Program-made: the position numbers and the translations under genes
The notes under the pieces: model-generated
The model's database searches: none
What the model was told of the DNA's origin: nothing
The model's input: only the letters and a program-made list of their open reading frames with translations
Shown here: positions 12,478 to 26,354 of the stretch, one piece after another
Numbering within the stretch: the stretch's first letter is position 1
Layout: every line of letters begins with the position of its first letter
Assembly (NCBI GenBank): GCA_021513695.1
Contig: CP084166.1
Span: 672,001-736,000, forward strand
Origin: Candidatus Heimdallarchaeum aukensis
GTDB lineage: Archaea; Asgardarchaeota; Heimdallarchaeia; Heimdallarchaeales; Heimdallarchaeaceae
Direction of reading: 5' to 3'
Length of the DNA: 64,000 nt

Positions 12478-13563
12478 ATGAAAATTAATCGTATTTACAA
12501 GAGAGATTGTATTGAAGGATTAAAGCAACTTCAAGAAAATTCAGTGGATTTAATATTTGCAGATCCACCTTATAATCTACAATTGCGTAACGAACTTTAT
12601 CGCCCTGATCAATCCAAAGTAGATGCGGTTAATGACAAATGGGATAGATTCTATTCTTTTGAAGAATATGACAATTTCTCTTTAAAATGGCTGAAAGAAT
12701 GCAGACGTGTATTGAAACCCACAGGCTCTATATGGGTAATAGGGACTTATCATAATATTTTCAGGATAGGTAAAATTATGCAAGATTTAGGTTTTTGGAT
12801 ACTAAACGACATAATTTGGGTAAAAACAAATCCTATGCCCAATTTTAAAGGAACAAGGTTCAATAACGCACATGAGACACTTATTTGGGCTGCTAAAGAA
12901 AAAAATGCAAAACAAACTTTTCATTACAAATCAATGAAGATTATGAATGATAATAAACAAATGCGAAGCGATTGGTATTTACCTATTTGTATTGGTAATG
13001 AAAGGTTAAAAAATAATGGAAAGAAGGTTCATTCTACTCAGAAACCTGAATCTCTCCTCTACCGTATAATTTTATCTTCTTCCAATGTTGGAGATCTAGT
13101 TTTAGACCCTTTTATGGGTACAGGAACAACTGCTGCTGTTGCTAAAAAACTGCGAAGGAATTACATCGGATTTGAGATTGATGATTATTACATTAGTGAA
13201 GCAGAAAAAAGAATTGCTAAAGTTTTACCTTTATCCGAAGATCTTTTAGATTACAAAATTGAAAAAAAACCTCCTAAAGTATCCTTTGGTATGCTAATTG
13301 AGAACAAATACATCAATCCGGGGGATTTTCTTTATTCCAGAGATTTAAAACACAAAGCAATTATTAAGGCTAATGCTTCAATTGAATATGAAGGGAAAGT
13401 GGGTTCTATTCATTCTATTAGTGCTTTTATTTTAGGAAAAAAAGCAAATAACGGTTGGGAATTCTGGTACTTAAAGAATAGCTCTGGTGAATTGGTATCT
13501 ATTGATTCACTAAGAAAAAAATTCGCAGTGAATGAATGGGGTGAAGAATGGAATGTCATCTAA
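12478..13563 (+). CDS. DNA methyltransferase, beta-class N6-adenine/N4-cytosine (DPPY before FxGxG), with approx 110-aa C-terminal extension
   Basis: Motif IV FADPPYNL near the N-terminus and motif I FMGTGTT downstream (beta permutation), as in the CcrM/M.RsrI group. C-terminal extra domain with GWEFWY. Confidence 0.85.
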   Translation: MKINRIYKRDCIEGLKQLQENSVDLIFADPPYNLQLRNELYRPDQSKVDAVNDKWDRFYSFEEYDNFSLKWLKECRRVLKPTGSIWVIGTYHNIFRIGKIMQDLGFWILNDIIWVKTNPMPNFKGTRFNNAHETLIWAAKEKNAKQTFHYKSMKIMNDNKQMRSDWYLPICIGNERLKNNGKKVHSTQKPESLLYRIILSSSNVGDLVLDPFMGTGTTAAVAKKLRRNYIGFEIDDYYISEAEKRIAKVLPLSEDLLDYKIEKKPPKVSFGMLIENKYINPGDFLYSRDLKHKAIIKANASIEYEGKVGSIHSISAFILGKKANNGWEFWYLKNSSGELVSIDSLRKKFAVNEWGEEWNVI

Positions 13564-13627
13564 AAAGAATAACCTTCAACTCACATTAAATGGAAAAGGT
13601 TATCATAGATAAGATCCATTTAGCTTT

Positions 13628-14938
13628 ATGAAGTTATCCAAGGACAAAGTCAACTATCTTATTTTTGAAGGTGGTGGAGGAAAAGGAGTTACTTATATTG
13701 GGGCTTTAGAAGCTCTTGAAGAATTAGGTATTCTCAGATTTACTGAAAAAAATATAGGAGAAAAGGTTGTTACTCATCTTGCTCCAAATTGCTTGAAAGG
13801 AGTAGCTGGAACTTCAGTTGGTTCACTTTTTGCTTTACTTGTATCTTTGGGCTACAACTCACAAGAAATAAGAGAATTATTAAAAAGCAACTTAACTGAC
13901 GAGTTTCTAGATACTATCGAATTTGGTTTGATTCAATCAATTTATAGCCAGCTTACTGAACAATCTTTTGTTAAAGACCCTCAACTAGAAATATCTACAA
14001 ATTTCGTTGAGAATAAATGGTCTTCTTTTCTTCAAAAACAAGAGAAATCTTTCAAAGATTTGTTTGCTTACCCTCTTAAAATGATCAAGCAAGCAAATTA
14101 TTATATCCTCTCAATGTTCATCAAATTTCTTCTTTATTATGAATCAAGAAAAATAAAGAATGAAAAACCATCTAACGAAACAGAAACTACATTTATCCCT
14201 ACATTACGAGACTTTGCGCAGTCAAAAACTCTAAAAAATGCTGTAGATAAAATTTTGGATAAACCAGCCGATGCTCTTAATAGTCTTAAATATGAATTTG
14301 GTTTTTTCCTTGGCAATGGGGCAAGAGAAGTTATAGATAGGTTAATTGAAGAAAGAACAGGAGTGAAAAACTGTACTTTCAATCAATTTTATGAAATTTT
14401 AGGAATTGATCTTGTTATTACTTCTTTTGATTTACAGACAAAACAAGTTGAATACTTAAGAAAAGATTCTAAATGGAAAAACCTTTGTGTGGCAGATGCA
14501 GTAAGAATGTCAATTTCTATTCCATTAGTCTTCAAACCTGTTGTTATTAACATGAAAGACGAGTTCATTCTTCCAATTACAGATGATGTTTCTTATGCTC
14601 ATTATTTCATTGATGGTGGAGCAGCAAACAATTTTCCCCTTCATGTTTTTGATGATAGAGAAGACAAACTAAATCCCTACGTTCTAGGATTTACTCTATC
14701 GTATAAAAGACAATATAATCCTTTTATTGAAGAAATTACTTTCTTTGAATATTTAGAAGATGTCTTCCTTTCAGTTCTTAAACAGACAACAAATTTACAA
14801 TTCAAAAAGAAAGAAGAACAAGAACAAGTGATAGAACTTGACCCAGAGTACATAAAAGTACTTGACTTTTCTTTTGATGAGATACCAGAAAAAACAATAC
14901 AAAAAGCAAAGAAGAAAACACTAGAATATTTCAAATGA
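13628..14938 (+). CDS. patatin-like phospholipase
   Basis: Oxyanion hole FEGGGGKGVTYIGAL, nucleophile elbow GTSVGS (GxSxG), and catalytic Asp in IDGGAANNFPL (DGG). There is a long insertion between GxSxG and DGG. Confidence 0.75.
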   Translation: MKLSKDKVNYLIFEGGGGKGVTYIGALEALEELGILRFTEKNIGEKVVTHLAPNCLKGVAGTSVGSLFALLVSLGYNSQEIRELLKSNLTDEFLDTIEFGLIQSIYSQLTEQSFVKDPQLEISTNFVENKWSSFLQKQEKSFKDLFAYPLKMIKQANYYILSMFIKFLLYYESRKIKNEKPSNETETTFIPTLRDFAQSKTLKNAVDKILDKPADALNSLKYEFGFFLGNGAREVIDRLIEERTGVKNCTFNQFYEILGIDLVITSFDLQTKQVEYLRKDSKWKNLCVADAVRMSISIPLVFKPVVINMKDEFILPITDDVSYAHYFIDGGAANNFPLHVFDDREDKLNPYVLGFTLSYKRQYNPFIEEITFFEYLEDVFLSVLKQTTNLQFKKKEEQEQVIELDPEYIKVLDFSFDEIPEKTIQKAKKKTLEYFK

Positions 14939-15032
14939 TAATAATTTATTTGTTTCATCCAATGCAAAAATTTAGTAATCATTAAGAAAACTAACAGAAA
15001 TGTTTTTTTATCTTAAATAGATTTTTTTTTGA

Positions 15033-16100
15033 ATGATTAGAGAATTAAACGTTGAGAACTTCAAATCAATAGAAAATCTTTATCTTAAATGCTCAAAAAT
15101 TAACATCTTTATTGGAGAACCAAACGTAGGAAAATCAAATATTATTGAGTCTTTAGGATTGTTTTCATCTATTTTATTTCATGAAAATTCTTCAAATAGA
15201 AATGAAGCTATTAACAAAGAGTTTATACGTTATAACAATTTTATTGACCTATTTCATAACAGTAATCTAAGAAAAAAAATCAAAGTATCTACAGATAAAT
15301 ACCAAATTGAAATTAGAGCGGAAGAAAATAATTTCTATATTTCTGTTTATCGAATTCAACTAAGTTCAGAAGAAAAAGATAAAAACTTTAGTAAAAGAAT
15401 CATTAGATCAGAAAATATCTTACAAGTAGAAGCAATAGCAAATTCACCTGGAATATATTCTTGGAACTTTAAGACTAATTTTAACGATTTTAAGAAAGAA
15501 AAGAATTTCCCAAAGATAATGTATTATAAAAATATGGAAACAGAAAAATTCGTTTCTCTAAACTTTGATTTTTTGAATCCTCCATCAGGAAATAACCTTC
15601 TAACTATATTGCAAACAAATACAGATCTTTACAAAAAAATCAATGAGATACTTTTTTCTTTCAATCTCAAATTAATGCTGAGAGAAGTAGAAAAGACTAT
15701 CGAACTTGTAAGAGATATAGAAGGAAAATTAATTGCTATTCCCTTTAAGCTAGTTGCTGAATCTTTCCATCAACTTTTCCTTTTACTAAGTGCGATGAAT
15801 ACATGTAAAGATTCTATTATCTGTTTGGAAGAACCAGAGACACATCTATTCCCAAAATATACAAAGTTAATAGCTGAACTCATAGCTAAAAATAAAAACA
15901 ATAATCAGTATTTTATTTCAACACACAACCCCTATTTTTTGATTTCATTAATAGAAAAAGCAAAAAAAGAAGATTTAAGTATTTTTGCAGTAAGTTTTCA
16001 GAATAATCATACAAAAGTTTCAAAAATACAAGAAAATGAGATAAGAGAACTCTTAGAAGGAGAAGATCCATTTTTTAACATCAATAAGTACTTCGAGTAG
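15033..16100 (+). CDS. AAA_21/ABC-type ATPase of the OLD/AbiL/PARIS-AriA kind
   Basis: Walker A GEPNVGKSN, Walker B ICLEEPETHLFP (the EEPE..LHP-type motif typical of AAA_21), H-loop ISTHNPYF. The stop TAG abuts the ATG of the next gene. Confidence 0.7.
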   Translation: MIRELNVENFKSIENLYLKCSKINIFIGEPNVGKSNIIESLGLFSSILFHENSSNRNEAINKEFIRYNNFIDLFHNSNLRKKIKVSTDKYQIEIRAEENNFYISVYRIQLSSEEKDKNFSKRIIRSENILQVEAIANSPGIYSWNFKTNFNDFKKEKNFPKIMYYKNMETEKFVSLNFDFLNPPSGNNLLTILQTNTDLYKKINEILFSFNLKLMLREVEKTIELVRDIEGKLIAIPFKLVAESFHQLFLLLSAMNTCKDSIICLEEPETHLFPKYTKLIAELIAKNKNNNQYFISTHNPYFLISLIEKAKKEDLSIFAVSFQNNHTKVSKIQENEIRELLEGEDPFFNINKYFE

Positions 16101-16597
16101 ATGTCAATGATACTAGTTGAATGTTATGCTGATGAAAGATTAGTGAGAACACTTCTACCAGAATTATCTAAAAAAGAATATTCTCATGCAGGTAACAAAA
16201 CAGGGGTAATCAAAAGGTTAATTAAAATAAAAAATGGAAAAAAATACATTGGATTAGTTGATAGAGATCCCCACTCTAATCCTCCTGGTTTTTTCCACAA
16301 CTTTACTCTTCTGGAAAATCATGAAGAATCAAAAATATCTATTTACTTTTTCAAAAAAAAAACAATGCTAAACTTGTCGTTATTGAACCTGAACTTGAAG
16401 GATGGATTGTAAACATCGCTCATTCGATTCACTTTAAACTCAGAGATTATGGTTTACCTGAAGATCCAGATAAATTGCATGAGGTTATCAACGAAAAAAG
16501 AAACCTAGATAATTTCTCAAAGCTTGTTTCAGACTTACTACAAAAAAGTGTTCACCTTTCTAAATTAAAAAAAATTTTATCAAAAAGTATAGATTAA
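16101..16597 (+). CDS. Toprim-like small protein (DUF4276/OLD-family Toprim-like), interrupted by a -1 frameshift in an A10 tract
   Basis: The N-terminal ORF (16101-16412) has ILVECYADE (Toprim Glu) and GLVDRDPHS (DxD). After the A10 run at 16353-16362 the frame continues as NNAKLVVIEPELEGWIVNIAHSIHFKLRDYGLPEDPDKLHEVINEKRNLDNFSKLVSDLLQKSVHLSKLKKILSKSID, ending at 16597. One additional A would give a single approx 165-aa protein. Confidence 0.55.
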
Positions 16598-16613
16598 AAA
16601 AGAAAAAATTCAT

Positions 16614-17099
16614 TTAATCTATAACAGCTTTCTTGTTTTTCTTACCACTCATATATGAAATATTGATCTTTCCTATTTTTACATTTATTATTGATTTTTC
16701 AGTGAGATACTCCTTGTTCTTTTTTTCTGGTTCTTTTTCAAACTTCTCAATTAAAAGCTCTAAAGCTTTCTTTTTTTCTTCAAATTCCTCAATAAAGGTT
16801 ACGTTACTTTGGAAATGTACTGAAGCGTAATTATGGTCACATTCTCCTTCTAGGTAGCCAAAGTCAAGCATTGCTTCTCCCCAGATTAAATTGTTTTTTT
16901 CTAAAATTTCTATCTTTTTTCCTTTTTTAGCACAATGGAAGTAAATACACTTTTGATCATTATCAAGAACAAAGTTTAGGGTTACTAAATAGGGAATATT
17001 ATTGTTACACATCGCAATTGTAACATAGAGAGCTCTGTTTAAAATTCTCAATTGTTCTTCTTCATCTATAGCTTTTTCCTTTCTTCTTATTTCTCTCAA
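16614..17099 (-). CDS. pyridoxamine 5'-phosphate oxidase-like FMN-binding split-barrel protein
   Basis: Start MREIRRKEKAIDEEEQLRILNRALYVTIAM...YLVTLNFV...IYFHCAKKGKK matches the PNPOx-like/NimA pattern. Confidence 0.5.
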   Translation of the reverse strand: MREIRRKEKAIDEEEQLRILNRALYVTIAMCNNNIPYLVTLNFVLDNDQKCIYFHCAKKGKKIEILEKNNLIWGEAMLDFGYLEGECDHNYASVHFQSNVTFIEEFEEKKKALELLIEKFEKEPEKKNKEYLTEKSIINVKIGKINISYMSGKKNKKAVID

Positions 17100-17170
17100 A
17101 ATATTCAGCTCCTACAATAGAAATAGACTAAATACCCTTAAAAGTATTTATTAGGTGAAAAAAGGAAAAA

Positions 17171-18133
17171 TTAGAAGATTATACCTAGCAACCAGAGTAA
17201 AAAGGCCATTACCATAAACATAGATGCAAGTTTAAAAATCAGCCATGTGGTTTTTTCACTGGGCCTAATAAGATTCTTTATGGATAGAAAAATAAAAAAT
17301 AAAGCTGTTAAACAAGCGAGGATATGGATTACAATATTTACTTTTAGTGAAAGGCTGATTAAAATTGTAATGATTGCACTAATTATTGATGAAAGAGTTA
17401 TAACTATTATAGTTCTATCTTTTCCTTTCACTACAGGCCACATAGGAACACCAGCGAGTTGATATCCTTCTAGGTTTTTGGGTATCAAAGCTAATGTTAG
17501 AATGTGCATTGGTATCCAGGCTAGTATAAACACTCCAAACATTATTGCCAAAGAATCAATTTTGTTTATTGCTGCTGTTCTACCAGCAATAGCCGGTAAA
17601 GCTCCTGCTATTCCTCCAAAAAGAATTGAAAATCTTGTTCTTCTTTTTAACCAGTAAGAGTAGATAATCACATCAAAAAAAGCCCCCAATAAGATTACAA
17701 GTCCTGTAAGGGCATTTAGGAACACTACTGCACTCATAATTCCGCTAATTGTGAATACTATCCCATGTCCAACTACTGTTTCTTCTGCTATTTTTCCAGA
17801 TGCTAGAGCTCGATTTTTTGTTCTTTCCATTATCTTGTCGATATCTTGGTCAATGTACATATTTAGTAACGTTGATCCAGAGATAGAAAAAAAGAGGGCG
17901 ATTATTAACCAACTTAGGGTGAATAAACTAAAATCTTTCCACGAGCTTATTAAATAGGTGAGCACTCCAGTATATACAAGTAAAAAAGTCTGCTTTGTTT
18001 TGATTAGTTCAAAATAAACCTTAATAGGAAGAAAAAAAGGAATGATGTTCTCATTTTTACTTGTTCCAATGTTCACGTAGGCTTCTACATTTGAATTGTT
18101 AGTGTTGTATATATTTGGAGTTTCTTCAGTCAA
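17171..18133 (-). CDS. UbiA-family prenyltransferase, heme O synthase (CtaB/CyoE)-like
   Basis: Asp-rich motif NMYIDQDIDKIMERTKNRAL matches the N..DxDID..M.RT..RP signature of protoheme IX farnesyltransferases. Has 8-9 TM helices. Confidence 0.55.
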   Translation of the reverse strand: MTEETPNIYNTNNSNVEAYVNIGTSKNENIIPFFLPIKVYFELIKTKQTFLLVYTGVLTYLISSWKDFSLFTLSWLIIALFFSISGSTLLNMYIDQDIDKIMERTKNRALASGKIAEETVVGHGIVFTISGIMSAVVFLNALTGLVILLGAFFDVIIYSYWLKRRTRFSILFGGIAGALPAIAGRTAAINKIDSLAIMFGVFILAWIPMHILTLALIPKNLEGYQLAGVPMWPVVKGKDRTIIVITLSSIISAIITILISLSLKVNIVIHILACLTALFFIFLSIKNLIRPSEKTTWLIFKLASMFMVMAFLLWLLGIIF

Positions 18134-18150
18134 TTAATTCACCAATTAAA

Positions 18151-19623
18151 TTATTCTTCTAGATCTATGGATATCTTTTCTTTGTAAACCTTGCTTTGGA
18201 TTATTTTAACTAATTGATATACACAGAATATACCGATTGCAGTTAAAATTAGAACGATTCCAACATCTGTAAGATACATATACCATGCTGACATATCTGG
18301 CCATTTAAGCATATAGAACATAACAAATCCGAAAGCAAAGGTGCTTCCAATAGTTATTCCCCAACCTAATATTTCTCTTATCCACTTCTTTTTTATCCTA
18401 ATTGAATCAATGTACATCAATAAAATCATCATTGCAGATAAAGTTGCTAAAACGTGCCAATGACCAACATTATAAGCATATTCTAGTTCAAAAGGTCCAG
18501 CTCTCACTTCATCAAGATTCAAGGCAATGTATATTCCAGGAACAGTAACAACTAGATTAACCCATATGAATAAGAAATACAATCCTGAAAGCACAGAATC
18601 TTTGAAGATTGCGAGAAATTTCTTGTAAAAGGGAGCTTCATCATACTTTTCTCCTAGAACTTTTTTAGACACTTTTCTAAAACCATCAACAATCAACACA
18701 ATAGAAGCTAAAATTAAAATCGATACTCCAACATTTATTATCATGTGTGCAGATTCAACATCAGCTGGAACTAACCACCCACCAGCATCAGTAATAAGTA
18801 TACCTGGTATTATAGCTATTTGAGCAACAAGATACCATTTTCCTTTTGTTTTTGTAAATTTAAAGGCTATAAGTAAAATAGCAGCATCAATTAAAGCCAA
18901 CATAATATGCAAGTGTGCAACTATCATTCTAACATACACTGCTTCAGGAGTAAAACCACTATGATCGATTCTCACTCTTGCTTCAGCTATAAATGCTTCA
19001 AAATTGAGTGCTGAATCTGGATTTCCAAAATTAGCACCCACAATAGCACCAAGTGTAGCTGTAACTATTAAAGATAAACCTACAAGAACTAAATTCAAAT
19101 TTTCTAGATTAATCTTTCCAATTATTGGCCCTTCTTTACTCTCAGGAAAACTCTTTGTAGGCCATACTCCAACAACAAAAGCCATTCCTGAGTACCACAC
19201 TAAGCTTAATCCTACCACAAAAAGACCATGTAAAATCATATTTTCTTGGAAAATATATGCATAAGTTAATCCGCTAACACTTGTAAGCATCGAACCGTAA
19301 AAAAGAGGCCATTTTACATGTGATTCAGCTCTTTTTCTTATTGGAAACAAGTCTAGAATAAAGAATACAACAGCTGCAAGGAAAGGCATAGCTATAGAAT
19401 GGTAAAGCATAATTATTCTTCCTACTCTTGTTTCTTCAGATAGATCAATATTAATTAAGGAAAAACCTAATATTTTCTCAACAGGTTCAGAAAAGGAACC
19501 CAAGAAAAGTATTACTAAAATCAGGTAAGCAATTATAAACGTTATAAGACCAGTATATGTTCCAAACCCATAATTGAAAATATTTTTTATTCTTAATGAC
19601 AGATTTTCTTTTGTCTCTGACAT
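18151..19623 (-). CDS. polytopic membrane protein with conserved intramembrane histidines (function unknown)
   Basis: 490 aa, more than 12 predicted TM helices. His residues lie within helices (HSIAMPF, VAHLHIML, GHWHVLATL). 17 nt upstream of the UbiA gene on the same strand. Confidence 0.4.
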   Translation of the reverse strand: MSETKENLSLRIKNIFNYGFGTYTGLITFIIAYLILVILFLGSFSEPVEKILGFSLINIDLSEETRVGRIIMLYHSIAMPFLAAVVFFILDLFPIRKRAESHVKWPLFYGSMLTSVSGLTYAYIFQENMILHGLFVVGLSLVWYSGMAFVVGVWPTKSFPESKEGPIIGKINLENLNLVLVGLSLIVTATLGAIVGANFGNPDSALNFEAFIAEARVRIDHSGFTPEAVYVRMIVAHLHIMLALIDAAILLIAFKFTKTKGKWYLVAQIAIIPGILITDAGGWLVPADVESAHMIINVGVSILILASIVLIVDGFRKVSKKVLGEKYDEAPFYKKFLAIFKDSVLSGLYFLFIWVNLVVTVPGIYIALNLDEVRAGPFELEYAYNVGHWHVLATLSAMMILLMYIDSIRIKKKWIREILGWGITIGSTFAFGFVMFYMLKWPDMSAWYMYLTDVGIVLILTAIGIFCVYQLVKIIQSKVYKEKISIDLEE

Positions 19624-19852
19624 ACATTTTTTTCAATTCAACAGTTTTAAAATATTTTGCATAAAAGAAGACAAAAAATATAGTTTAGAAATTAAAAATT
19701 AGGAATCAAATATTGTTATTTTTTATTCTAAGAGTTAATTTAAGAATAAAACCTTATCAATAAATCGCCAATCAAATTCAAAATAATACGCCTAGTTCTT
19801 ACTATGAAAAAATTTATTTTTGATAATATGATTCTTTAGAAGTGATTATTTA

Positions 19853-20698
19853 ATGAAAAAAGAAAATCTTGATTTACAACTAACTAATCTTTTTTTAGAA
19901 CTAGAAAAGAAAGTAGATGAGTTTAATAAAGAAACAATAGATAGTAAAGAGATTTTAACATATTTTAAAAAATATTATTTCGAATTTTACACTTCTTTCT
20001 CTTCTAAATTTTCTTACAAAAAACTCAAAGCCAAGAAAGAAAAATTGAGAATGAATACTACTTTCACAAGAGGAGAAAAGAAGTATCTTGACTCGTTATC
20101 AATGTTAAATCAATGTCTTATTAAAATAATTTCAAAAAACCAACAAAAAATTGTCACTTTACAATATTTTGACCCAAAAATAGAATCATTAGAAAAACTA
20201 ACAGAGAACTTTGCCACGCAGAAAGAAGAATCAAATGAGGTAATATCTGTTTTAAGAACTATAACGGATTGGTTTCTCAAAAATAGAGAATATTTCAATT
20301 CATTAAATTCAGAAAAAACAGAGCTAATAATTAGGAAATTACTCTCGACATCCAATATTCTTTCAAAAGTAAGTACCCAGATAGACCTCCAATTAGAGAG
20401 AATAAAATTCCAAGACTATTTAGAGAACCTTAAAAGCAGAAGAGAAGAAATACTGAAAAAAATCATTTATGAGCGAGAGAAAATTCCTCTGCAAGAACTT
20501 TCTCCTCTTTTAGAATTCAATGATGTATTAGAACTTGAAAGATGGATATTGCATTTACCTACTAAACTTTTCAAAATTGATGATGAAATAGTTATTATCA
20601 ATAAAGATGAGCAAGATTCTGACATTGTCTCTGCTATTTCAATGTTACTTGATAAATTCCAAGAGTATGAAGAATTAGGATTAGGTAAGAAGATTTAG
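19853..20698 (+). CDS. hypothetical alpha-helical/coiled-coil protein
   Basis: 281 aa, Lys/Glu-rich, no recognised motif. The stop is immediately followed by the start of the LRR gene. Confidence 0.4.
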   Translation: MKKENLDLQLTNLFLELEKKVDEFNKETIDSKEILTYFKKYYFEFYTSFSSKFSYKKLKAKKEKLRMNTTFTRGEKKYLDSLSMLNQCLIKIISKNQQKIVTLQYFDPKIESLEKLTENFATQKEESNEVISVLRTITDWFLKNREYFNSLNSEKTELIIRKLLSTSNILSKVSTQIDLQLERIKFQDYLENLKSRREEILKKIIYEREKIPLQELSPLLEFNDVLELERWILHLPTKLFKIDDEIVIINKDEQDSDIVSAISMLLDKFQEYEELGLGKKI

Positions 20699-21637
20699 GT
20701 GATAGAGATGAAAATCAAACTTAACACTATAAAAGGAGAAAAAGAAATATCTCTGAAAAAAAATCAGCATATAATTGATCTTTCGAATATGAATCTTTTA
20801 ACTATAAATTTAGATTTTTTGGAAGAATTACCAAATGTTGAAGCAATAAACCTGTCAAATAACAGTTTATCCAGGTTAGATTTAACCCCAATAGAAAACT
20901 GTTCTAACTTATCTTCTCTACGTTTATCTAATAATAATTTAGTCAAAATTAGACTAGAACCGCTAAGAAATTGTCCCAATCTCGAGATATTAGATTTATC
21001 AAACAATCAGCTTACAGAAATCGATTTATCTCCTATTATATCTTGTACTATGATCAAATCTCTTAATCTATCTTTCAATAAGTTAGAGTCTATAGATCTT
21101 TCTCCTCTTTCTCTTTTCCCTAATCTACGAACGCTTAATATTTCCAATAATAGACTTACCTTCGTCAACTTAAAAAAGATAGTTTTCTGCATTGCACTCA
21201 AAGAGCTAGATATTTCAAACAATAATTTCAGAACTTTAGATTTAACTCCAATTTTTGGTTTTAGAAATTTGGTTCGTTTATACTTATCTGAAAATGAAAA
21301 AAAAGTAGCTGACTGGGATGTTTCCTACTTAAAATATCAACAATTGTCAAGTGGTTTAAGATATTATTTTCAAGAGATTAAAAAACAAAACCTGAAAGTT
21401 CAAAGAAATGATATTTTCAAGAAAGTACTAGAAAAATACATATCAATCAGGCTTTCAAAACTAGCCATATTTCTCGGATTCGATGAATTAATAGATTTAG
21501 AAAATTGGATTTTGGGTTTAAATTTGAATAATGTCACCATAAAAGGGAATTATTTGCTGATAGATCAATCAGTTTATGTTGACATAGATAAGGAAATGAA
21601 TAAATTAATGCAAAGTTTTGACGGGTTAAATAGATAA
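20699..21637 (+). CDS. leucine-rich repeat (LRR) protein
   Basis: About eight tandem 22-23-aa repeats of the form LxxLDLSNNxLTxIDLSPIxxCxxL, plus an approx 100-aa C-terminal non-LRR region. Confidence 0.7.
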   Translation: MIEMKIKLNTIKGEKEISLKKNQHIIDLSNMNLLTINLDFLEELPNVEAINLSNNSLSRLDLTPIENCSNLSSLRLSNNNLVKIRLEPLRNCPNLEILDLSNNQLTEIDLSPIISCTMIKSLNLSFNKLESIDLSPLSLFPNLRTLNISNNRLTFVNLKKIVFCIALKELDISNNNFRTLDLTPIFGFRNLVRLYLSENEKKVADWDVSYLKYQQLSSGLRYYFQEIKKQNLKVQRNDIFKKVLEKYISIRLSKLAIFLGFDELIDLENWILGLNLNNVTIKGNYLLIDQSVYVDIDKEMNKLMQSFDGLNR

Positions 21638-21700
21638 CAGATAAACTATTTAGTGAATGAAAATTTTTATTTGGAGTTTGAAAGAAAAGTAAAGATTTTC

Positions 21701-21952
21701 TTAATTTTCTTTTAAAGAATAAATTAACTTTAATTTTTCCATAGCTTCTTGAATAGGCAATTCTCTGAGTTTTGAAGCTTGCTCTAAATGTTCATTACAA
21801 AACCATTCTGCATTTATTGGATGACCAACCTTTCCTTCTCTTTCCATTTTTTTATTCCATTCTTTAACTTCCTCAGTTTCTTTGAAATAGATTATATCTC
21901 CAGTTCCTGGTGAAAATCTCTTTCCACAGATAACACAAATTGGGGGTTTCAT
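21701..21952 (-). CDS. small zinc-ribbon protein
   Basis: CVICGKR...CNEH cysteine/histidine pairs, 83 aa. Confidence 0.35.
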   Translation of the reverse strand: MKPPICVICGKRFSPGTGDIIYFKETEEVKEWNKKMEREGKVGHPINAEWFCNEHLEQASKLRELPIQEAMEKLKLIYSLKEN

Positions 21953-22126
21953 TAGAAATAAACAATTATCGTTCTTTAAAAAATTATCTTATTTTTTAGA
22001 TAATCAAAACAAATTTTCTTCTTTTTTTTCACAGACACTAGTTTTTAATTATAATATATCTAATTAGCATCTCCTAATACGGTTATGTTTAAATAATTTA
22101 GACTAACCTTATTTTTTTAGATAAAA

Positions 22127-22371
22127 ATGGAAAATATTATCGAAGCAAAGGATATTACAAAAACTTACAACGGAAAAACAATTCTGAATAAACTTTCATT
22201 TCAAGTCAAAAAAGGAGAATTATTCACATTAATTGGCCATAACGGTGCAGGAAAAACAACTCTTTTCAAGATTCTTACAGGACAAATTAAACAAGATAGT
22301 GGTACAGCAAGAATCTTTGATACTAATGTTGAATCGCAATTAAAGAGTAAGTATAAATTACGTATCAGCTA
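22127..22371 (+). pseudogene. ABC transporter ATP-binding protein, N-terminal fragment (disrupted by IS insertion)
   Basis: Walker A GHNGAGKTT and Q-loop region up to KLRISY. The remainder of the ORF (DLLFYVKFFALCLAREKTKGSLIS) is not ABC-like and reads into the inserted element. Confidence 0.7.
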
Positions 22372-22640
22372 TGATTTACTTTTTTACGTAAAGTTTTTCG
22401 CACTCTGTCTTGCAAGAGAGAAAACTAAAGGAAGTTTAATCTCTTGAACTCAACCAAGCCATACAATGCCATGAAGGGGTTGAGACAGACATCATACACG
22501 AAACGTGGGAATCATAAAGAAGAATAGAAAGTTTTTCTTTCTTTTCTTCACTCCACGAGAGACAAAAAAAAGAATTACTCCTATAATAGAGAAGGAGTTA
22601 CTTTCCTTTTTGTCTACTGGGACTGCAACCAATGGCTGAG
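22372..22640 (-). ncRNA. putative omega-RNA (reRNA) region at the right end of the TnpB element
   Basis: In IS200/IS605 TnpB elements the guide RNA overlaps the 3' end of tnpB and the right end. The region is GC-richer and structured-looking. No direct evidence of transcription. Confidence 0.25.
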
Positions 22641-24062
22641 CCCTCGGCAAACAGTGAAATGGGAAGAACTGAACCTTTGACCAGTGAGGTAATCAGTGAT
22701 AGTTGTTCCTCGAGGACGAAAAAGATCTCCAAGGAACTTACGAGCGATATTCATTGCTCCTGTGAGGTCAGAGTGGAAAGTGTAATTGCAAGAGGAGCAA
22801 TGAACTAAACCTCTTACTGGACGGATAACTTTCCTTCCACAACGAGCACAGTGAGAAGATGTCCCTCTTTCATTCATTGTTAATATTCGGTGAGGTTCAA
22901 AACCTCGAAGTATCAATGCCCGACGGAGAAGAGCAAGAATAAGAGAAAAGTTCCACCGATGAAGTTTCCTGCGAAACTTACGAGTACTTTTACCTTTTCC
23001 TTTCTCCTCACGAACATGTTTAGGATAACCTACAACGACGAAAAGGTCATATATTCGCGCATAAGTCTCTATCGTCTGCACGATGTCGCTTACAAATTGG
23101 TAAATATAGGCTCGTTTAACGTTTCTATATCTTCTTCGGAGGAGACTAAGAAAACGATAAACTTGGTGTTTTTTACCCGACTGGTCATTTAAAGCCGCTT
23201 TCCTCTGAAGACGGGAAAGTTTGAGTTTATATCGATGATTGACTCTATTCCACTGTTTGGTATACCAGAACTTTATCTCTTTGTTTGTTAATTTCTTTTT
23301 AGGGGTCAGTAACACTCCTGTAGCAGGAATGTTTATCCCTATATCTATTCCCAGCACAGCTGGGGGAAGAGAAGAAGAACTTTTTTCTTCAGGAGGATAA
23401 AAAGAAGAAGGAAGAACTTTTAATTGGAAATACACCCACCACTCACGTGTAGAACGTTTATATCTTAGTTCTAGACTTTTTATTCTTCCTTTCTTTAACT
23501 CCTTCTGGTGGAAATCACTCATCTCTAAAGGTAACCATATTTTCTGATGATAAGGGGTGTTTCTTTTCCACGTATCTAACGAGTCTCTTATCCCCACCCA
23601 CCAACGAGTGAGAGTGTTATTCTTCTCTTTTGGTAGATGAACGAGAATGAACCTCTTTGCATTAATTAGTTGTTTTCTAGCTCTCTTTATTGGAGGACGA
23701 GTATTGTTAGGCCTATACCCTTGTTCATATAGTTGCACGCCTATATCTCTACATTCTTGGAATTCATTGTGAGAACAATAAAGGAACATTTTCTTAAGAT
23801 CGTGAGGAACAGTCTTTCTTCTCTCTTCTTCTTTAACTTTTGAAGTAGTTAGCGTCAGTTCATCTAGTTTTCCTCTATGTACTCTTATTTTCCCTCTCTT
23901 AGTTTTAGTACATATTTTTCCTCTGTTATGATGTATTATTCTCACATACTTCTCTATTATCCTCGTGTCTCTCCCCGTTATTCTCCTTAACTTTTCCTTC
24001 TTCCTCGTCGTCAATACCTCATTCTTTATTCTCACTTTCAAGGTTTTGACGACGTCCTCCAT
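22614..24062 (-). CDS. tnpB: TnpB (OrfB) RNA-guided endonuclease-like transposase-associated protein
   Basis: 482 aa. RuvC-I LGIDIGI, C-terminal zinc finger CARCGRK...CSSCNY, and RuvC-III HSDLTGAMNIARKF. Basic N-terminus. Confidence 0.85.
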   Translation of the reverse strand: MEDVVKTLKVRIKNEVLTTRKKEKLRRITGRDTRIIEKYVRIIHHNRGKICTKTKRGKIRVHRGKLDELTLTTSKVKEEERRKTVPHDLKKMFLYCSHNEFQECRDIGVQLYEQGYRPNNTRPPIKRARKQLINAKRFILVHLPKEKNNTLTRWWVGIRDSLDTWKRNTPYHQKIWLPLEMSDFHQKELKKGRIKSLELRYKRSTREWWVYFQLKVLPSSFYPPEEKSSSSLPPAVLGIDIGINIPATGVLLTPKKKLTNKEIKFWYTKQWNRVNHRYKLKLSRLQRKAALNDQSGKKHQVYRFLSLLRRRYRNVKRAYIYQFVSDIVQTIETYARIYDLFVVVGYPKHVREEKGKGKSTRKFRRKLHRWNFSLILALLRRALILRGFEPHRILTMNERGTSSHCARCGRKVIRPVRGLVHCSSCNYTFHSDLTGAMNIARKFLGDLFRPRGTTITDYLTGQRFSSSHFTVCRGLSHWLQSQ

Positions 24063-24215
24063 CTTTCTCTTTTCTCCTTCTTTCCTCTTTTTTTGTTTCT
24101 TCTTCTCTTTTTTATTCTACTTTTTTTCCCTATAAAAACCCCTCCCCTTCTTCTCTTCCCTTTTTTCTCTCTACATCTTCCTCAACAATTATAAATTACG
24201 CAAAAAATAGACGCA

Positions 24216-24951
24216 TGTTCCACAAGCAGATCTTCTTTGGGATAATCTAACTATAAAAGAAAACATCTCTCTAATGGGTAATCTTTATGGATTAAAGAAA
24301 GCACAAATTGAAGAAAAAGCAAACAAATTTCTTACTGATTTTAATTTGGTTGAACATCAAAAAAAACTTGCTGATAAACTGTCTGGAGGTATGAAAAAGA
24401 AATTATCAATTGCTATGTCTTTGATGAATGATCCATTACTTCTATTTTTAGATGAACCAACTACAGGACTTGATGTTGAAGCAAGAACTTTGTTAATTGA
24501 AGATTTGAAAAGGCTGAAAGAAGAAGGAATAACCATTATTCTTACTACCCATTTAATGGAAGTAGCAGAATCACTAGCGTCAAAAGTTTTAATCATCGAC
24601 AAAGGACAAGTAGTTGCATTTGGAACAGTAGAGAATATAATTAATGAATCTATAGGTGATAAAATCCTCCAAGTAGGATTAATCAAAAGAAATAATGAAT
24701 TTGAAGATTTTATTGAAAAAGAAATCAAACATTCAAAAGAAGTCGATTATATTCAAATCAAACAAACATTTTTCTTCAAGGGAGAAAAGTTACCAGAACT
24801 TATACAAGTAATTTCTTCTTCTGAATTTATTAAAGACATCTATGAAATTAACATTAAAAAAAGTTCTCTAAAGGAAGCTTTTCTCTTTATTACTCATAAA
24901 ATTTACAAGAATGGGAATAACTTTAATTCTTTACTGGAGGTTCAAAAATGA
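24216..24951 (+). pseudogene. ABC transporter ATP-binding protein, C-terminal fragment (same gene as 22127-22371)
   Basis: Reading upstream of the annotated Met stays in frame as THVPQADLLWDNLTIKENISLMGNLYGL. ABC signature LSGGMKKKL, Walker B LLFLDEPTTGLD, H-loop TTHLM. Confidence 0.7.
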
Positions 24952-26354
24952 TCTTATACCTTACTCTTATTCGAATAAAACAGATAATCAGAGAAAAGGA
25001 ATTTTACTTTTATGTAATAGTTTTTCCATTATTCTTCTTAATTCTATTTGGTTTTCTTAGTTCAAGCTGGGTACAAACAACAACAACTATTCCTATTGGA
25101 TACATTTCTGAAGATTTAGGAATTAGTGATGATATCCTTAACGAAACAATAATGTTTGATGAAGCATTCTACAATTTCTTGAACAAACACCACTTAGAAA
25201 ATAATATCAAAACTTTCGAGATACATAATTATACAGAAGTAAATTCTTTGGAAAATGATATCAACAATAGAATTATCGATGGAGGAATAGTAATTCCTTT
25301 CGATTTTTCAGAACAAATGCTTAACATATCAAGGTTTTACAGTTCTCTTATTCTAGTTAATTTCCTTGGGAGTCAATTTAATACTTATGCTTCAGAATCT
25401 GCTAATATTTCTGCAGCTATTAACTCTCTTTCATCTCATCTTCAAGGAACAGCTAATTTATCTTTACTTTTCTATGGTGATATAACAATCGACACAGCTA
25501 TGACTTCTTATTCTGTTCTTTGGCAAGTGATAAACGACTATGTTCAAAACACAACTCTTTCTTACACTGAAAAGATTTGGAAGGTTATTAAGAATGAATT
25601 CGATCTATCTTTCAATTTCTCTTCTACAAGTAATGATTCTTCGCAAAACTCTATAACCTATAGTATTATCGTAGTTGATTCTGGAACAGGAGAATTAGTT
25701 ACCAACTTCAGAAAAGAATATATTTCCAATATCCTTCCAGGTCAAATTATACAAAGCATCCTAATGTCTTCAATCTCTGTAATATGGTTGACTGAAATGG
25801 AAGAACGAAAAGAAATTTTAAAACGATTAAAATTGACTAAACTTACTGCTGGAGGATATATAGGAAGTATAATTCTCGCATGGGGAACTATTGCTTTACT
25901 TCAAGGTTTATTTTTGATTACTGTTTCTGCTGTGCTTGGATTCTTCAGTTTTTCTGTTGGTCCATTAGCTTGGTTGATGACTATTTTGACCTTAGTTTTT
26001 CTAGGTTTCATTACTGCAACTATTTCTTTACTTGTGACAAGTTTCATTAAACCTCGAACGGCAACTCCAATATTAGTTCTTTCTAGTACTGTTCTGGCTA
26101 TGTTTGTAGGAGAATATTTCTTTCAAGTTAAACCTGCTTTTACTTTTGCAAAGAAAAACTTTACTTGGTTAGACATATTTCCTGTTCGACCAGCTTTCCT
26201 TGTTATGAAGAATGCTCTATTATTAGGAAAAAATGGAGACATCACTATTTTGCTTTTTGACTTTGCTCTTGTTGTTTTATGGACAATTTTAATATTTGCC
26301 ATAAGTAGTTTCGCTTTTAGCAAACTAAAACTCAAATATATAGAAAAAGAATGA
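24948..26354 (+). CDS. ABC-2 type transporter permease with large extracytoplasmic domain
   Basis: N-terminal TM, approx 250-aa non-membrane region, then 5-6 C-terminal TM helices. Overlaps the ATPase stop by 4 nt. Confidence 0.55.
   Translation: MILYLTLIRIKQIIREKEFYFYVIVFPLFFLILFGFLSSSWVQTTTTIPIGYISEDLGISDDILNETIMFDEAFYNFLNKHHLENNIKTFEIHNYTEVNSLENDINNRIIDGGIVIPFDFSEQMLNISRFYSSLILVNFLGSQFNTYASESANISAAINSLSSHLQGTANLSLLFYGDITIDTAMTSYSVLWQVINDYVQNTTLSYTEKIWKVIKNEFDLSFNFSSTSNDSSQNSITYSIIVVDSGTGELVTNFRKEYISNILPGQIIQSILMSSISVIWLTEMEERKEILKRLKLTKLTAGGYIGSIILAWGTIALLQGLFLITVSAVLGFFSFSVGPLAWLMTILTLVFLGFITATISLLVTSFIKPRTATPILVLSSTVLAMFVGEYFFQVKPAFTFAKKNFTWLDIFPVRPAFLVMKNALLLGKNGDITILLFDFALVVLWTILIFAISSFAFSKLKLKYIEKE

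Follow-up and report, generated by a model that had tools for sequence, protein, structure and literature searches.

What do two small neighboring genes, one encoding a helical protein and the other a leucine-rich repeat (LRR) protein, have in common, and do their products work together? The question is posed by a stretch of 64,000 nucleotides (nt) from Candidatus Heimdallarchaeum aukensis (contig CP084166.1), a member of the Heimdallarchaeia, which are usually placed nearer to eukaryotes than any other archaea. I will refer to the whole of this stretch as the window, and all coordinates are positions within it. The two genes, here called A and B, were regarded in the initial annotation as a translationally coupled pair whose products end in similar segments of about 45 amino acids (aa), perhaps a scaffold or recognition pair with a common docking domain. 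The positions of the genes and the junction between them are as described there. Their parts, as they now appear, are these:

19853-20698, + strand: gene A, a 281-aa open reading frame (ORF) for a soluble protein whose N-terminal region, probably helical, evolves fast and which ends in a PCI-like module
19853-20392, + strand: N-terminal region of A (aa 1-180), probably helical
20393-20695, + strand: PCI-like winged-helix module of A with its C-terminal helix and ELGLGKKI tail (aa 181-281)
20696-20707, + strand: stop codon of A and 9-nt spacer, with a Shine-Dalgarno-like AGGTGA (20697-20702) overlapping the stop
20708-21637, + strand: gene B, encoding a soluble LRR protein of 309 aa that ends in a PCI-like module
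20774-21277, + strand: LRRs of B, seven of 24 residues each (aa 23-190), then an incomplete eighth that acts as a cap and extends to about aa 205
21356-21634, + strand: PCI-like winged-helix module of B (aa 217-309), a divergent, tail-less, basic variant

The C-terminal modules of A and B are homologous. The similarity noticed at the outset is thus real, and it is about twice as long as was thought: the module spans about 95 aa rather than 45 (A181-281 against B217-309, 33-36% identity), in an alignment that holds in orthologues. The segments compared initially (A226-270 and B261-305) are the weaker, C-terminal half of the module, aligned with a one-residue offset. A BLASTP alignment of A191-235 with B227-271 gives 40% identity (E = 4e-7), and the Smith-Waterman score of the two modules is 97, as compared to 30.7 +/- 5.6 for shuffled sequences (z = 11.9), with none of 5000 shuffles reaching 97. 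When each module was compared by tblastn to the six-frame translation of the 64-kilobase (kb) window, the sole match was the other module (E = 5e-6 and 7e-7), and neither tblastn nor a hidden Markov model (HMM) scan of the whole window found copies besides those in A and B. A profile made independently from 91 modules of the family described below, leaving out A, B, and their orthologues, recognizes both (A with 82.9 bits, E = 1.2e-18; B with 62.3 bits, E = 3e-12, scores scaled to 1.8e9 sequences), bearing out the significance of the shared segment.

The module is a winged helix with a helical extension, as judged from an AlphaFold2 model of A181-281 built on a 59-sequence alignment (mean predicted local distance difference test score, pLDDT, of 85). 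In the model a long helix H1 is followed by strand b1, helices H2 and H3, strands b2 and b3, and then the C-terminal helix, which occupies module residues 75-94 (A255-274) and holds the nearly invariant I82 and L85 of the family. H3, at the position of a recognition helix, has the hydrophobic and acidic pattern LExWLLxL with a nearly invariant Trp. The module of B was modeled from a single sequence, with pLDDT below 50; the order of its secondary structure elements is nonetheless that of a winged helix. The two modules differ in charge and in their ends. That of A has an isoelectric point (pI) of 4.8 and a net charge of -7, that of B a pI of 8.9 and a net charge of +2, the family median being -3. 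Protein A ends in ELGLGKKI, while the modules of B and all B-type orthologues, also C-terminal, lack the GxGKK tail and end in SFDGLNR, QFDEF, or SFESLRR.

The module is not private to the pair. Searches with single proteins gave only close orthologues, but when a profile made from the modules of A and B was compared exhaustively to 1.84 billion representatives of protein clusters, a family of 98 representatives emerged at E <= 1e-3, 12 of them at E <= 1e-10. No more than 2 aa separate the module from the C-terminus in about 80 of the 98. The consensus end is ...AIDxLLxxFxEWExxGxGKK, and 54 of 101 proteins end in GK followed by one to three residues. What precedes the module is highly variable: LRRs in seven members, HEAT repeats in five, TPR in three, and elsewhere a beta-propeller or LVIVD repeats, a right-handed beta-helix, TSP3 repeats, or zinc ribbons. 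Transmembrane-like segments are found in 39 of the 101, mostly followed by a K/E-rich helix. In the single-pass members, which are surface proteins with a coiled-coil stalk, the extracellular-type domains lie at the front and the module lies beyond the last membrane segment, an architecture from which the module is predicted to be cytoplasmic. A few members have tandem or N-terminal modules. Where clusters carry source names, these are all Heimdallarchaeal, and most clusters consist of unnamed metagenomic sequences, so that restriction of the family to the Heimdallarchaeia is likely but not proven. Individual genomes have several paralogues: at least four in the metagenome-assembled genome (MAG) GF308, and no fewer than three in the MAG to which the window belongs, the third being P0088 (P numbers denote family members, L numbers the loci compared here). 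No model in Pfam, NCBIfam, or PADLOC covers the family, and the literature searched contains no description of it or of LRRs fused to a PCI-like winged helix. The family of portable C-terminal modules is apparently undescribed.

Two groups of members deserve separate mention. About eleven proteins, among them P0032, P0033, P0042, P0052, P0059, P0062, P0063, P0069, P0070, and P0084, add some 85 residues at the C-terminus, comprising a double zinc ribbon and a RING-H2-like finger of the pattern CxVCKLPIxFGDxxGxCxxCExxGHxxHxxEWxxxxGxCPxC, with weak matches to Pfam zf-RING_2, zf-RING_16, and DZR. The glycine/lysine-rich tail (GxGKK plus zero to two residues) persists in them, and they end in KKKK or GKKNK. 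Such a combination of PCI-like winged helix and RING-like finger is a hint of some connection with ubiquitin-type signaling. Directly 3' of the gene for P0050, an LRR protein with the module (L013, 5001-7594), is a gene for a 500-aa protein with LRRs and an Arf/Roc-type small GTPase. Some family members may thus act in concert with ROCO-like GTPases, in contrast to A and B.

What kind of winged helix is it? Three independent routes connect the module to the winged-helix half of the PCI domain, to which it is related. When 59 modules were compared to Pfam, 42 matched PCI (PF01399) at E <= 1 (best 3e-7), 22 matched the CSN8_PSD8_EIF3K model, and 11 matched Paf67/eIF3l. Of 95 full-length members, 19 match PCI at E <= 1e-3 (best 3.7e-9), and P0033 and P0032, with 22.2 and 22.9 bits, reach the Pfam PCI gathering score of 22 bits. 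Finally, the best sequence matches of the family profile in the PDB are eIF3a, a proteasome PCI protein, CSN3, and eIF3e, each sub-threshold and each on the winged-helix region. In structure, too, the module (H1-b1-H2-H3-b2-b3) is nearest to the winged helices of PCI proteins. In the case of A and B the link is indirect, by way of the family. Since only the winged-helix half is present, and A and B fall below the Pfam threshold, I speak of a PCI-like module and not of a canonical PCI domain.

If the module is shared so widely, is there anything special about its occurrence in two adjacent genes? Every relative found, at identities as low as 33-40%, has A and B next to each other, with unrelated flanking genes, which answers affirmatively the question of linkage left by the initial annotation. 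The same order, A then B, is found in the relatives of 79-80% identity (L001-L003 and L016, the last being Candidatus Heimdallarchaeum endolithica PR6) and in an uncultured relative (L008-L010) whose A and B are 33% and 38% identical to those of the window. A second pair (A module about 40%, B 34-36% identity) exists in H. aukensis (L011) and in H. endolithica (L018). The complete genome of H. endolithica PR6 (CP084167.1) therefore has two paralogous pairs: L016 at about 0.79 Mb, which adjoins an ABC transporter as in the window, and L018 at about 0.48 Mb, which lies between a gene for an H+-pyrophosphatase and SelR/TrmO. Altogether the pair occurs in at least three diverged versions, in three contexts with unrelated flanking genes. 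In L008 (3593-9025), four genes with the module are adjacent, encoding an A-like protein, a B-like protein, a 324-aa protein with tandem modules, and a surface-type protein of more than 843 aa that also carries DUF285, CBM_56, and Big_7 domains. The difference in charge is likewise maintained: in all four pairs the net charge is -6 to -9 for A-type modules and 0 to +6 for B-type modules, and only 7% of the modules in the family reach +2 or more.

Outside the module the two proteins are quite different, and neither has transmembrane-like segments. Protein A matches no family in Pfam, NCBIfam, or PADLOC. It corresponds to a hypothetical protein from a Candidatus Heimdallarchaeaceae MAG, identical (100%) in one search and with one difference within aa 1-185 in another comparison. 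Its N-terminal 180 or so residues give nothing significant in Pfam, NCBIfam, or a profile search of the PDB, where the best match is a coiled-coil protein (E = 0.21), and no TPR, HEAT, or PCI match was found there in Pfam or by sequence search of the PDB. This region diverges fast, with 75% identity to the A protein of L001, and the N-terminal regions of A from L001 and L008 are about 28% identical over 111 aa (E = 0.008). Weak matches that might have indicated a degenerate second module in the N-terminus of A had negative bit scores and were dismissed as noise.

The LRRs of B are as regular as the initial annotation had it, with a period of exactly 24 aa, not 22-23, and with seven full repeats and a partial eighth. 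They keep the register LxLSxNxLxxIDLxPLxxCxNLxx, including a conserved Cys, and match LRR_8 (3e-23), LRR_4 (1.5e-19), and LRR_1 (2.6e-10) of Pfam. In a single-sequence AlphaFold2 model the repeats form a solenoid with visible periodicity of beta strand and helix; block means of pLDDT exceed 90 for residues 1-120 and fall below 90 from about residue 121 on. The best Foldseek matches are the LRRs of internalins and of a Chlorobium Roco protein (InlA and CtRoco, E about 1e-9, 27-29% identity). Tandem Repeats Finder detected no repeat at the DNA level in the region, from which I conclude that the LRRs are old and diverged. What precedes the module in B is thus an LRR solenoid and a linker, and not a TPR- or HEAT-like helical subdomain packed on the winged helix. 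No Roc GTPase or COR domain occurs in B, and no GTPase domain is found in B or in the neighboring genes scanned (15033-26354); among the latter there is also no kinase, as the initial annotation had observed.

The arrangement of the two genes is that of an operon, though not one with coupling by overlap. The TAG stop of A (20696-20698) is followed by the 9-nt spacer GTGATAGAG and then by the ATG of B at 20708. B could also begin at the GTG at 20699, giving 312 aa in place of 309, but gene callers choose the ATG in all assemblies, and the N-terminus MKIKLNT is kept in orthologues, which favors the ATG. The spacer is 9-13 nt in all four lineages, with GGTGA, GGGAGG, or GGAG abutting or overlapping the stop of A. 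A spacer of this length with its own Shine-Dalgarno-like motif speaks for operon organization with an internal ribosome-binding site, and so the translational coupling proposed earlier stands only as regards the operon-like arrangement. Upstream of A is a Shine-Dalgarno-like motif, AGAAGTGA/AGGAGT at 19838-19845, and the pair is bounded by two candidate signals:

19806-19821, + strand: candidate archaeal promoter element, A/T-rich and resembling TATA and B recognition element (BRE) sequences, GAAAAAATTTATTTTT, 32-47 nt before the ATG of A; its role is presumed
21664-21672, + strand: oligo-T run TTTTTATTT, candidate archaeal terminator, 27 nt past the stop of B and before a convergent 83-aa gene

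The TATA-like block and the Shine-Dalgarno-like motif are kept between the window and its 79-80% relatives L001 and L016, within the proximal 50 nt upstream of A; these 50 nt are conserved although the genes further upstream differ. Archaea use oligo-T terminators, and it is on this basis that TTTTTATTT is proposed as one. A scan for sigma-70 promoters and hairpin terminators, of a kind ill-suited to archaea, gave counts at the level of shuffled sequence, with no bacterial-type hairpin terminator identified. A and B are probably cotranscribed.

The remaining genes nearby appear to have little to do with the pair. A small defense-like island (12478-16412) contains a type II DNA methyltransferase (PADLOC MTase_II, 1.6e-169), a patatin-like phospholipase (13628-14938), an AAA_15 ATPase resembling AbiLi, AriA, and GajA (15033-16100), and, immediately after it, a seemingly truncated 103-aa DUF4435/AriB fragment (16101-16412), 3.4 kb upstream of A. 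The block from the ATPase to a 490-aa membrane protein is missing in the 79% relative, and it is therefore not part of a unit with A and B. On the other side, convergent with B, is a minus-strand gene for an 83-aa protein (21701-21952) with CxxC...CxxH spacing and no family match. It was considered as a further part of the unit and rejected, because it is syntenic in close relatives only and absent from L008 and L011. Beyond it, within 22127-24951, a 482-aa TnpB/Cas12f1-like ORF on the minus strand (22614-24062; Cas12f1-like_TNB, 1.2e-8) separates two halves of an ABC-transporter ATPase (22127-22447 and 24274-24951). L001/L002 and L016 have a single unbroken 326-aa ORF at this position, annotated ABC_tran in L001/L002. 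It looks as if the recent insertion of an element carrying TnpB disrupted the ATPase gene.

How, then, might A and B work? I think there is an even chance that the two proteins, products of a single operon, are the subunits of a small adaptor complex in the cytoplasm. Their modules would pair with each other in the fashion of PCI domains, by edge-to-edge contacts between the winged helices and bundling of the C-terminal helices, and their opposite charges (A acidic, B neutral to basic) might aid the pairing. The complex would join the LRR horseshoe of B, a putative surface for recognizing proteins or other ligands, to the helical N-terminal domain of A. In every solved PCI system of which I am aware, the winged helix is the assembly element: neighbors join via their winged helices and bundle their C-terminal helices. 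Examples are Sac3-Thp1, eIF3k-eIF3l, and adjoining subunits of the proteasome lid or the COP9 signalosome (CSN), and PCI assemblies can be as small as a pair of subunits, as in Sac3-Thp1. By analogy with these, A and B would heterodimerize through their modules, and in the family as a whole the module is most likely a general docking or oligomerization device. That A keeps the GLGKKI tail and is acidic, while B has lost the tail and is neutral to basic, fits a cognate pair better than two independent clients. Of the scaffold pair with a common docking domain envisioned at first, the domain is thus related to a known assembly domain, and the docking of A to B is put forward by analogy.

Several observations weigh against this interpretation. 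The modules of A and B are not each other's closest relatives within the family, a fact as compatible with simple membership in the family as with specific pairing. Two family members that combine LRRs with the module, P0043 and P0050, have no A-like neighbor, which shows that a partner next door is not required in every case, and pairing would be specific to the A/B subfamily. As to the connection with PCI, A has no match to the Pfam model and the module of B only a sub-threshold one (E = 0.064, 13.9 bits), much as in an orthologue of B (E = 0.021, 15.4 bits). Winged helices are ubiquitous, and MarR-type regulators occur lower in the same lists of structural matches. Lastly, B carries LRRs where a canonical PCI protein has a helical-repeat subdomain, and the N-terminus of A is uncharacterized.

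Four other explanations may be set beside the heterodimer. That the resemblance of A to B reflects only chance or composition, with no true shared module, is a natural worry in an AT-rich genome when K, E, I, L, and N abound in the two proteins, conditions that inflate weak similarities, yet it is refuted by the 5000 fruitless shuffles, by reciprocal profile E-values of 1e-12 to 1e-18 on the scale of 1.8e9 sequences, and by the persistence of the module in orthologues. The main rival is the idea of a common hub, a real if minor possibility, and one that arises because the module belongs to a large, promiscuous family: each protein could dock to a third component common to the whole family, without binding the other, and the operon would simply co-express two clients. 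The hub might be a scaffold in the cytoplasm, the surface of a membrane, or a PCI-like ring of larger size, with the GxGKK tail of A involved. The module does indeed appear behind dozens of unrelated N-terminal domains, in several paralogues per genome; most members whose genomic context was fetched have no adjacent gene with a module; and the conserved basic C-terminal tail suggests a shared recognition feature. A hub does not so readily account for the preservation of A and B as a unit in at least three diverged versions, twice in one genome, nor for the loss of the tail and the opposite charge in B-type modules, which are easier to explain by specialization for a cognate partner, and in all solved PCI systems the known partner of a PCI winged helix is another of the same kind.

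If the modules were instead DNA- or RNA-binding winged helix-turn-helix domains, then A and B would be regulators, with the LRRs of B as sensor input. The modeled fold would allow it, MarR, RovA, SarA, and TetR-type regulators are among the weaker structural matches, and some true PCI domains (eIF3a/c, PCID2/Thp1-Sac3) are reported to bind RNA. I consider this unlikely nonetheless. The module of A, though not that of B, is strongly acidic, and the median net charge of the family is -3; H3, with LExWLLxL and its nearly invariant Trp, has the character of a helix that is buried or in contact with protein; transmembrane-like segments occur in about 40% of members, preceded in some by extracellular-type domains; and the top matches in both sequence and structure are all PCI, not winged helix-turn-helix regulators. 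It is very improbable that the pair belongs to the nearby defense island as a sensor akin to the nucleotide-binding LRR (NLR) receptors, with B sensing a pathogen and A as effector or adaptor. LRRs do act as sensors in eukaryotic immunity, and the type II methyltransferase, the patatin-like phospholipase, and the AbiL/AriA-like ATPase with its AriB fragment lie just 3.4-7.4 kb upstream. However, neither A nor B has a PADLOC match at E <= 1e-3 or any NTPase, nuclease, TIR, or other effector domain, the relative of 79% identity has the pair without the block beginning with AAA_15, the second pair sits between the H+-pyrophosphatase gene and the housekeeping genes SelR/TrmO, and the pair in L008 sits among other module genes.

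The consequences depend on whether the modules pair. If they do not, then this is a lineage-specific family of winged helices, of modest interest. If they do, then A and B offer a simple prokaryotic model of PCI-type assembly, and a tractable one, since the operon specifies two small, soluble, co-expressible proteins. One may go further and suppose that the PCI assembly module is met here at an archaeal stage, as a free-standing winged helix and C-terminal helix that serves many proteins as a plug-in device for oligomerization, with A and B a minimal, two-subunit proto-PCI complex. I regard that extension as doubtful, but were it true, PCI-type assembly would predate eukaryotes, and the origin of the scaffold of the lid, CSN, and eIF3 would be experimentally approachable. 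In any event, a set of hypothetical proteins in Asgard archaea acquires a probable role, and about 100 cluster representatives can be recognized as carrying a portable PCI-like winged helix, fused in Heimdallarchaeia to recognition domains, membrane anchors, and RING-like fingers. The mechanism is not new in kind; what is new is a portable, lineage-expanded form of a domain considered a eukaryotic hallmark, in the archaea closest to eukaryotes.

Of known systems, the closest is the PCI domain itself (PF01399), found in the lid of the 26S proteasome, in CSN, and in eIF3, including the small proteins Rpn12, CSN8, and eIF3k. It has the same winged-helix topology with a C-terminal helix and the same C-terminal position, and most modules of the family match its Pfam model. 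It differs in that PCI proteins have a packed TPR- or HEAT-like stack ahead of the winged helix, while here the winged-helix half stands alone as a portable module behind LRRs (in B) or, elsewhere, coiled coils, transmembrane anchors, or beta-propellers. PCI complexes are also regarded as eukaryotic, and the module family is archaeal. I know of no counterpart in PCI proteins to the GxGKK tail, and no MPN/JAB partner was identified for A and B. The two-subunit PCI pairs Sac3-Thp1 (GANP-PCID2), of TREX-2, which uses the PCI fold too, and Thp3-Csn12 resemble the complex proposed here. They need Sem1/DSS1, however, and bind RNA via a basic platform, whereas the module of A is acidic and the N-terminal domains are unrelated.

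The N-terminal 200 aa of B form a regular solenoid similar to those of bacterial-type LRR proteins, the internalins and the Roco protein of Chlorobium tepidum. B differs from these in having no signal peptide, cell-wall anchor, or Roc-COR GTPase, in its repeat of 24 aa with the conserved Cys, and in the fusion of its LRRs to a PCI-like winged helix.

Portable winged helices of this sort have been described in other archaeal proteins. Using HHpred, Makarova et al. (2024, mBio; PMC10936438) noted a small C-terminal PCI-like winged helix in archaeal Ser/Thr kinases that are membrane-associated and belong to ESCRT loci, as well as HTH/PCI domains in the Vps28-C proteins of Asgard archaea; they proposed a role in oligomerization. 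This passing note was the only mention of PCI found in the Asgard literature searched. In kind these domains are like the module, portable and C-terminal, but they are partnered with kinases, adaptin-like Ig domains, and Vps28-C in the context of ESCRT loci, and no ESCRT gene lies beside A and B among the genes scanned.

A further parallel is provided by DDRGK1 (UFBP1) and UFL1, of the UFM1 E3 ligase. The Pfam DDRGK family is absent from the top families matched by the modules, and A and B have no membrane anchor. The likeness is one of architecture only, and with the family at large rather than with the pair. In DDRGK1 a membrane anchor at the N-terminus is followed by a long, charged helix and, at the C-terminus, by a PCI-like winged helix, which pairs with the winged helix of its partner, and many members of the family have just this order: a transmembrane segment, a K/E-rich helix, and the module.

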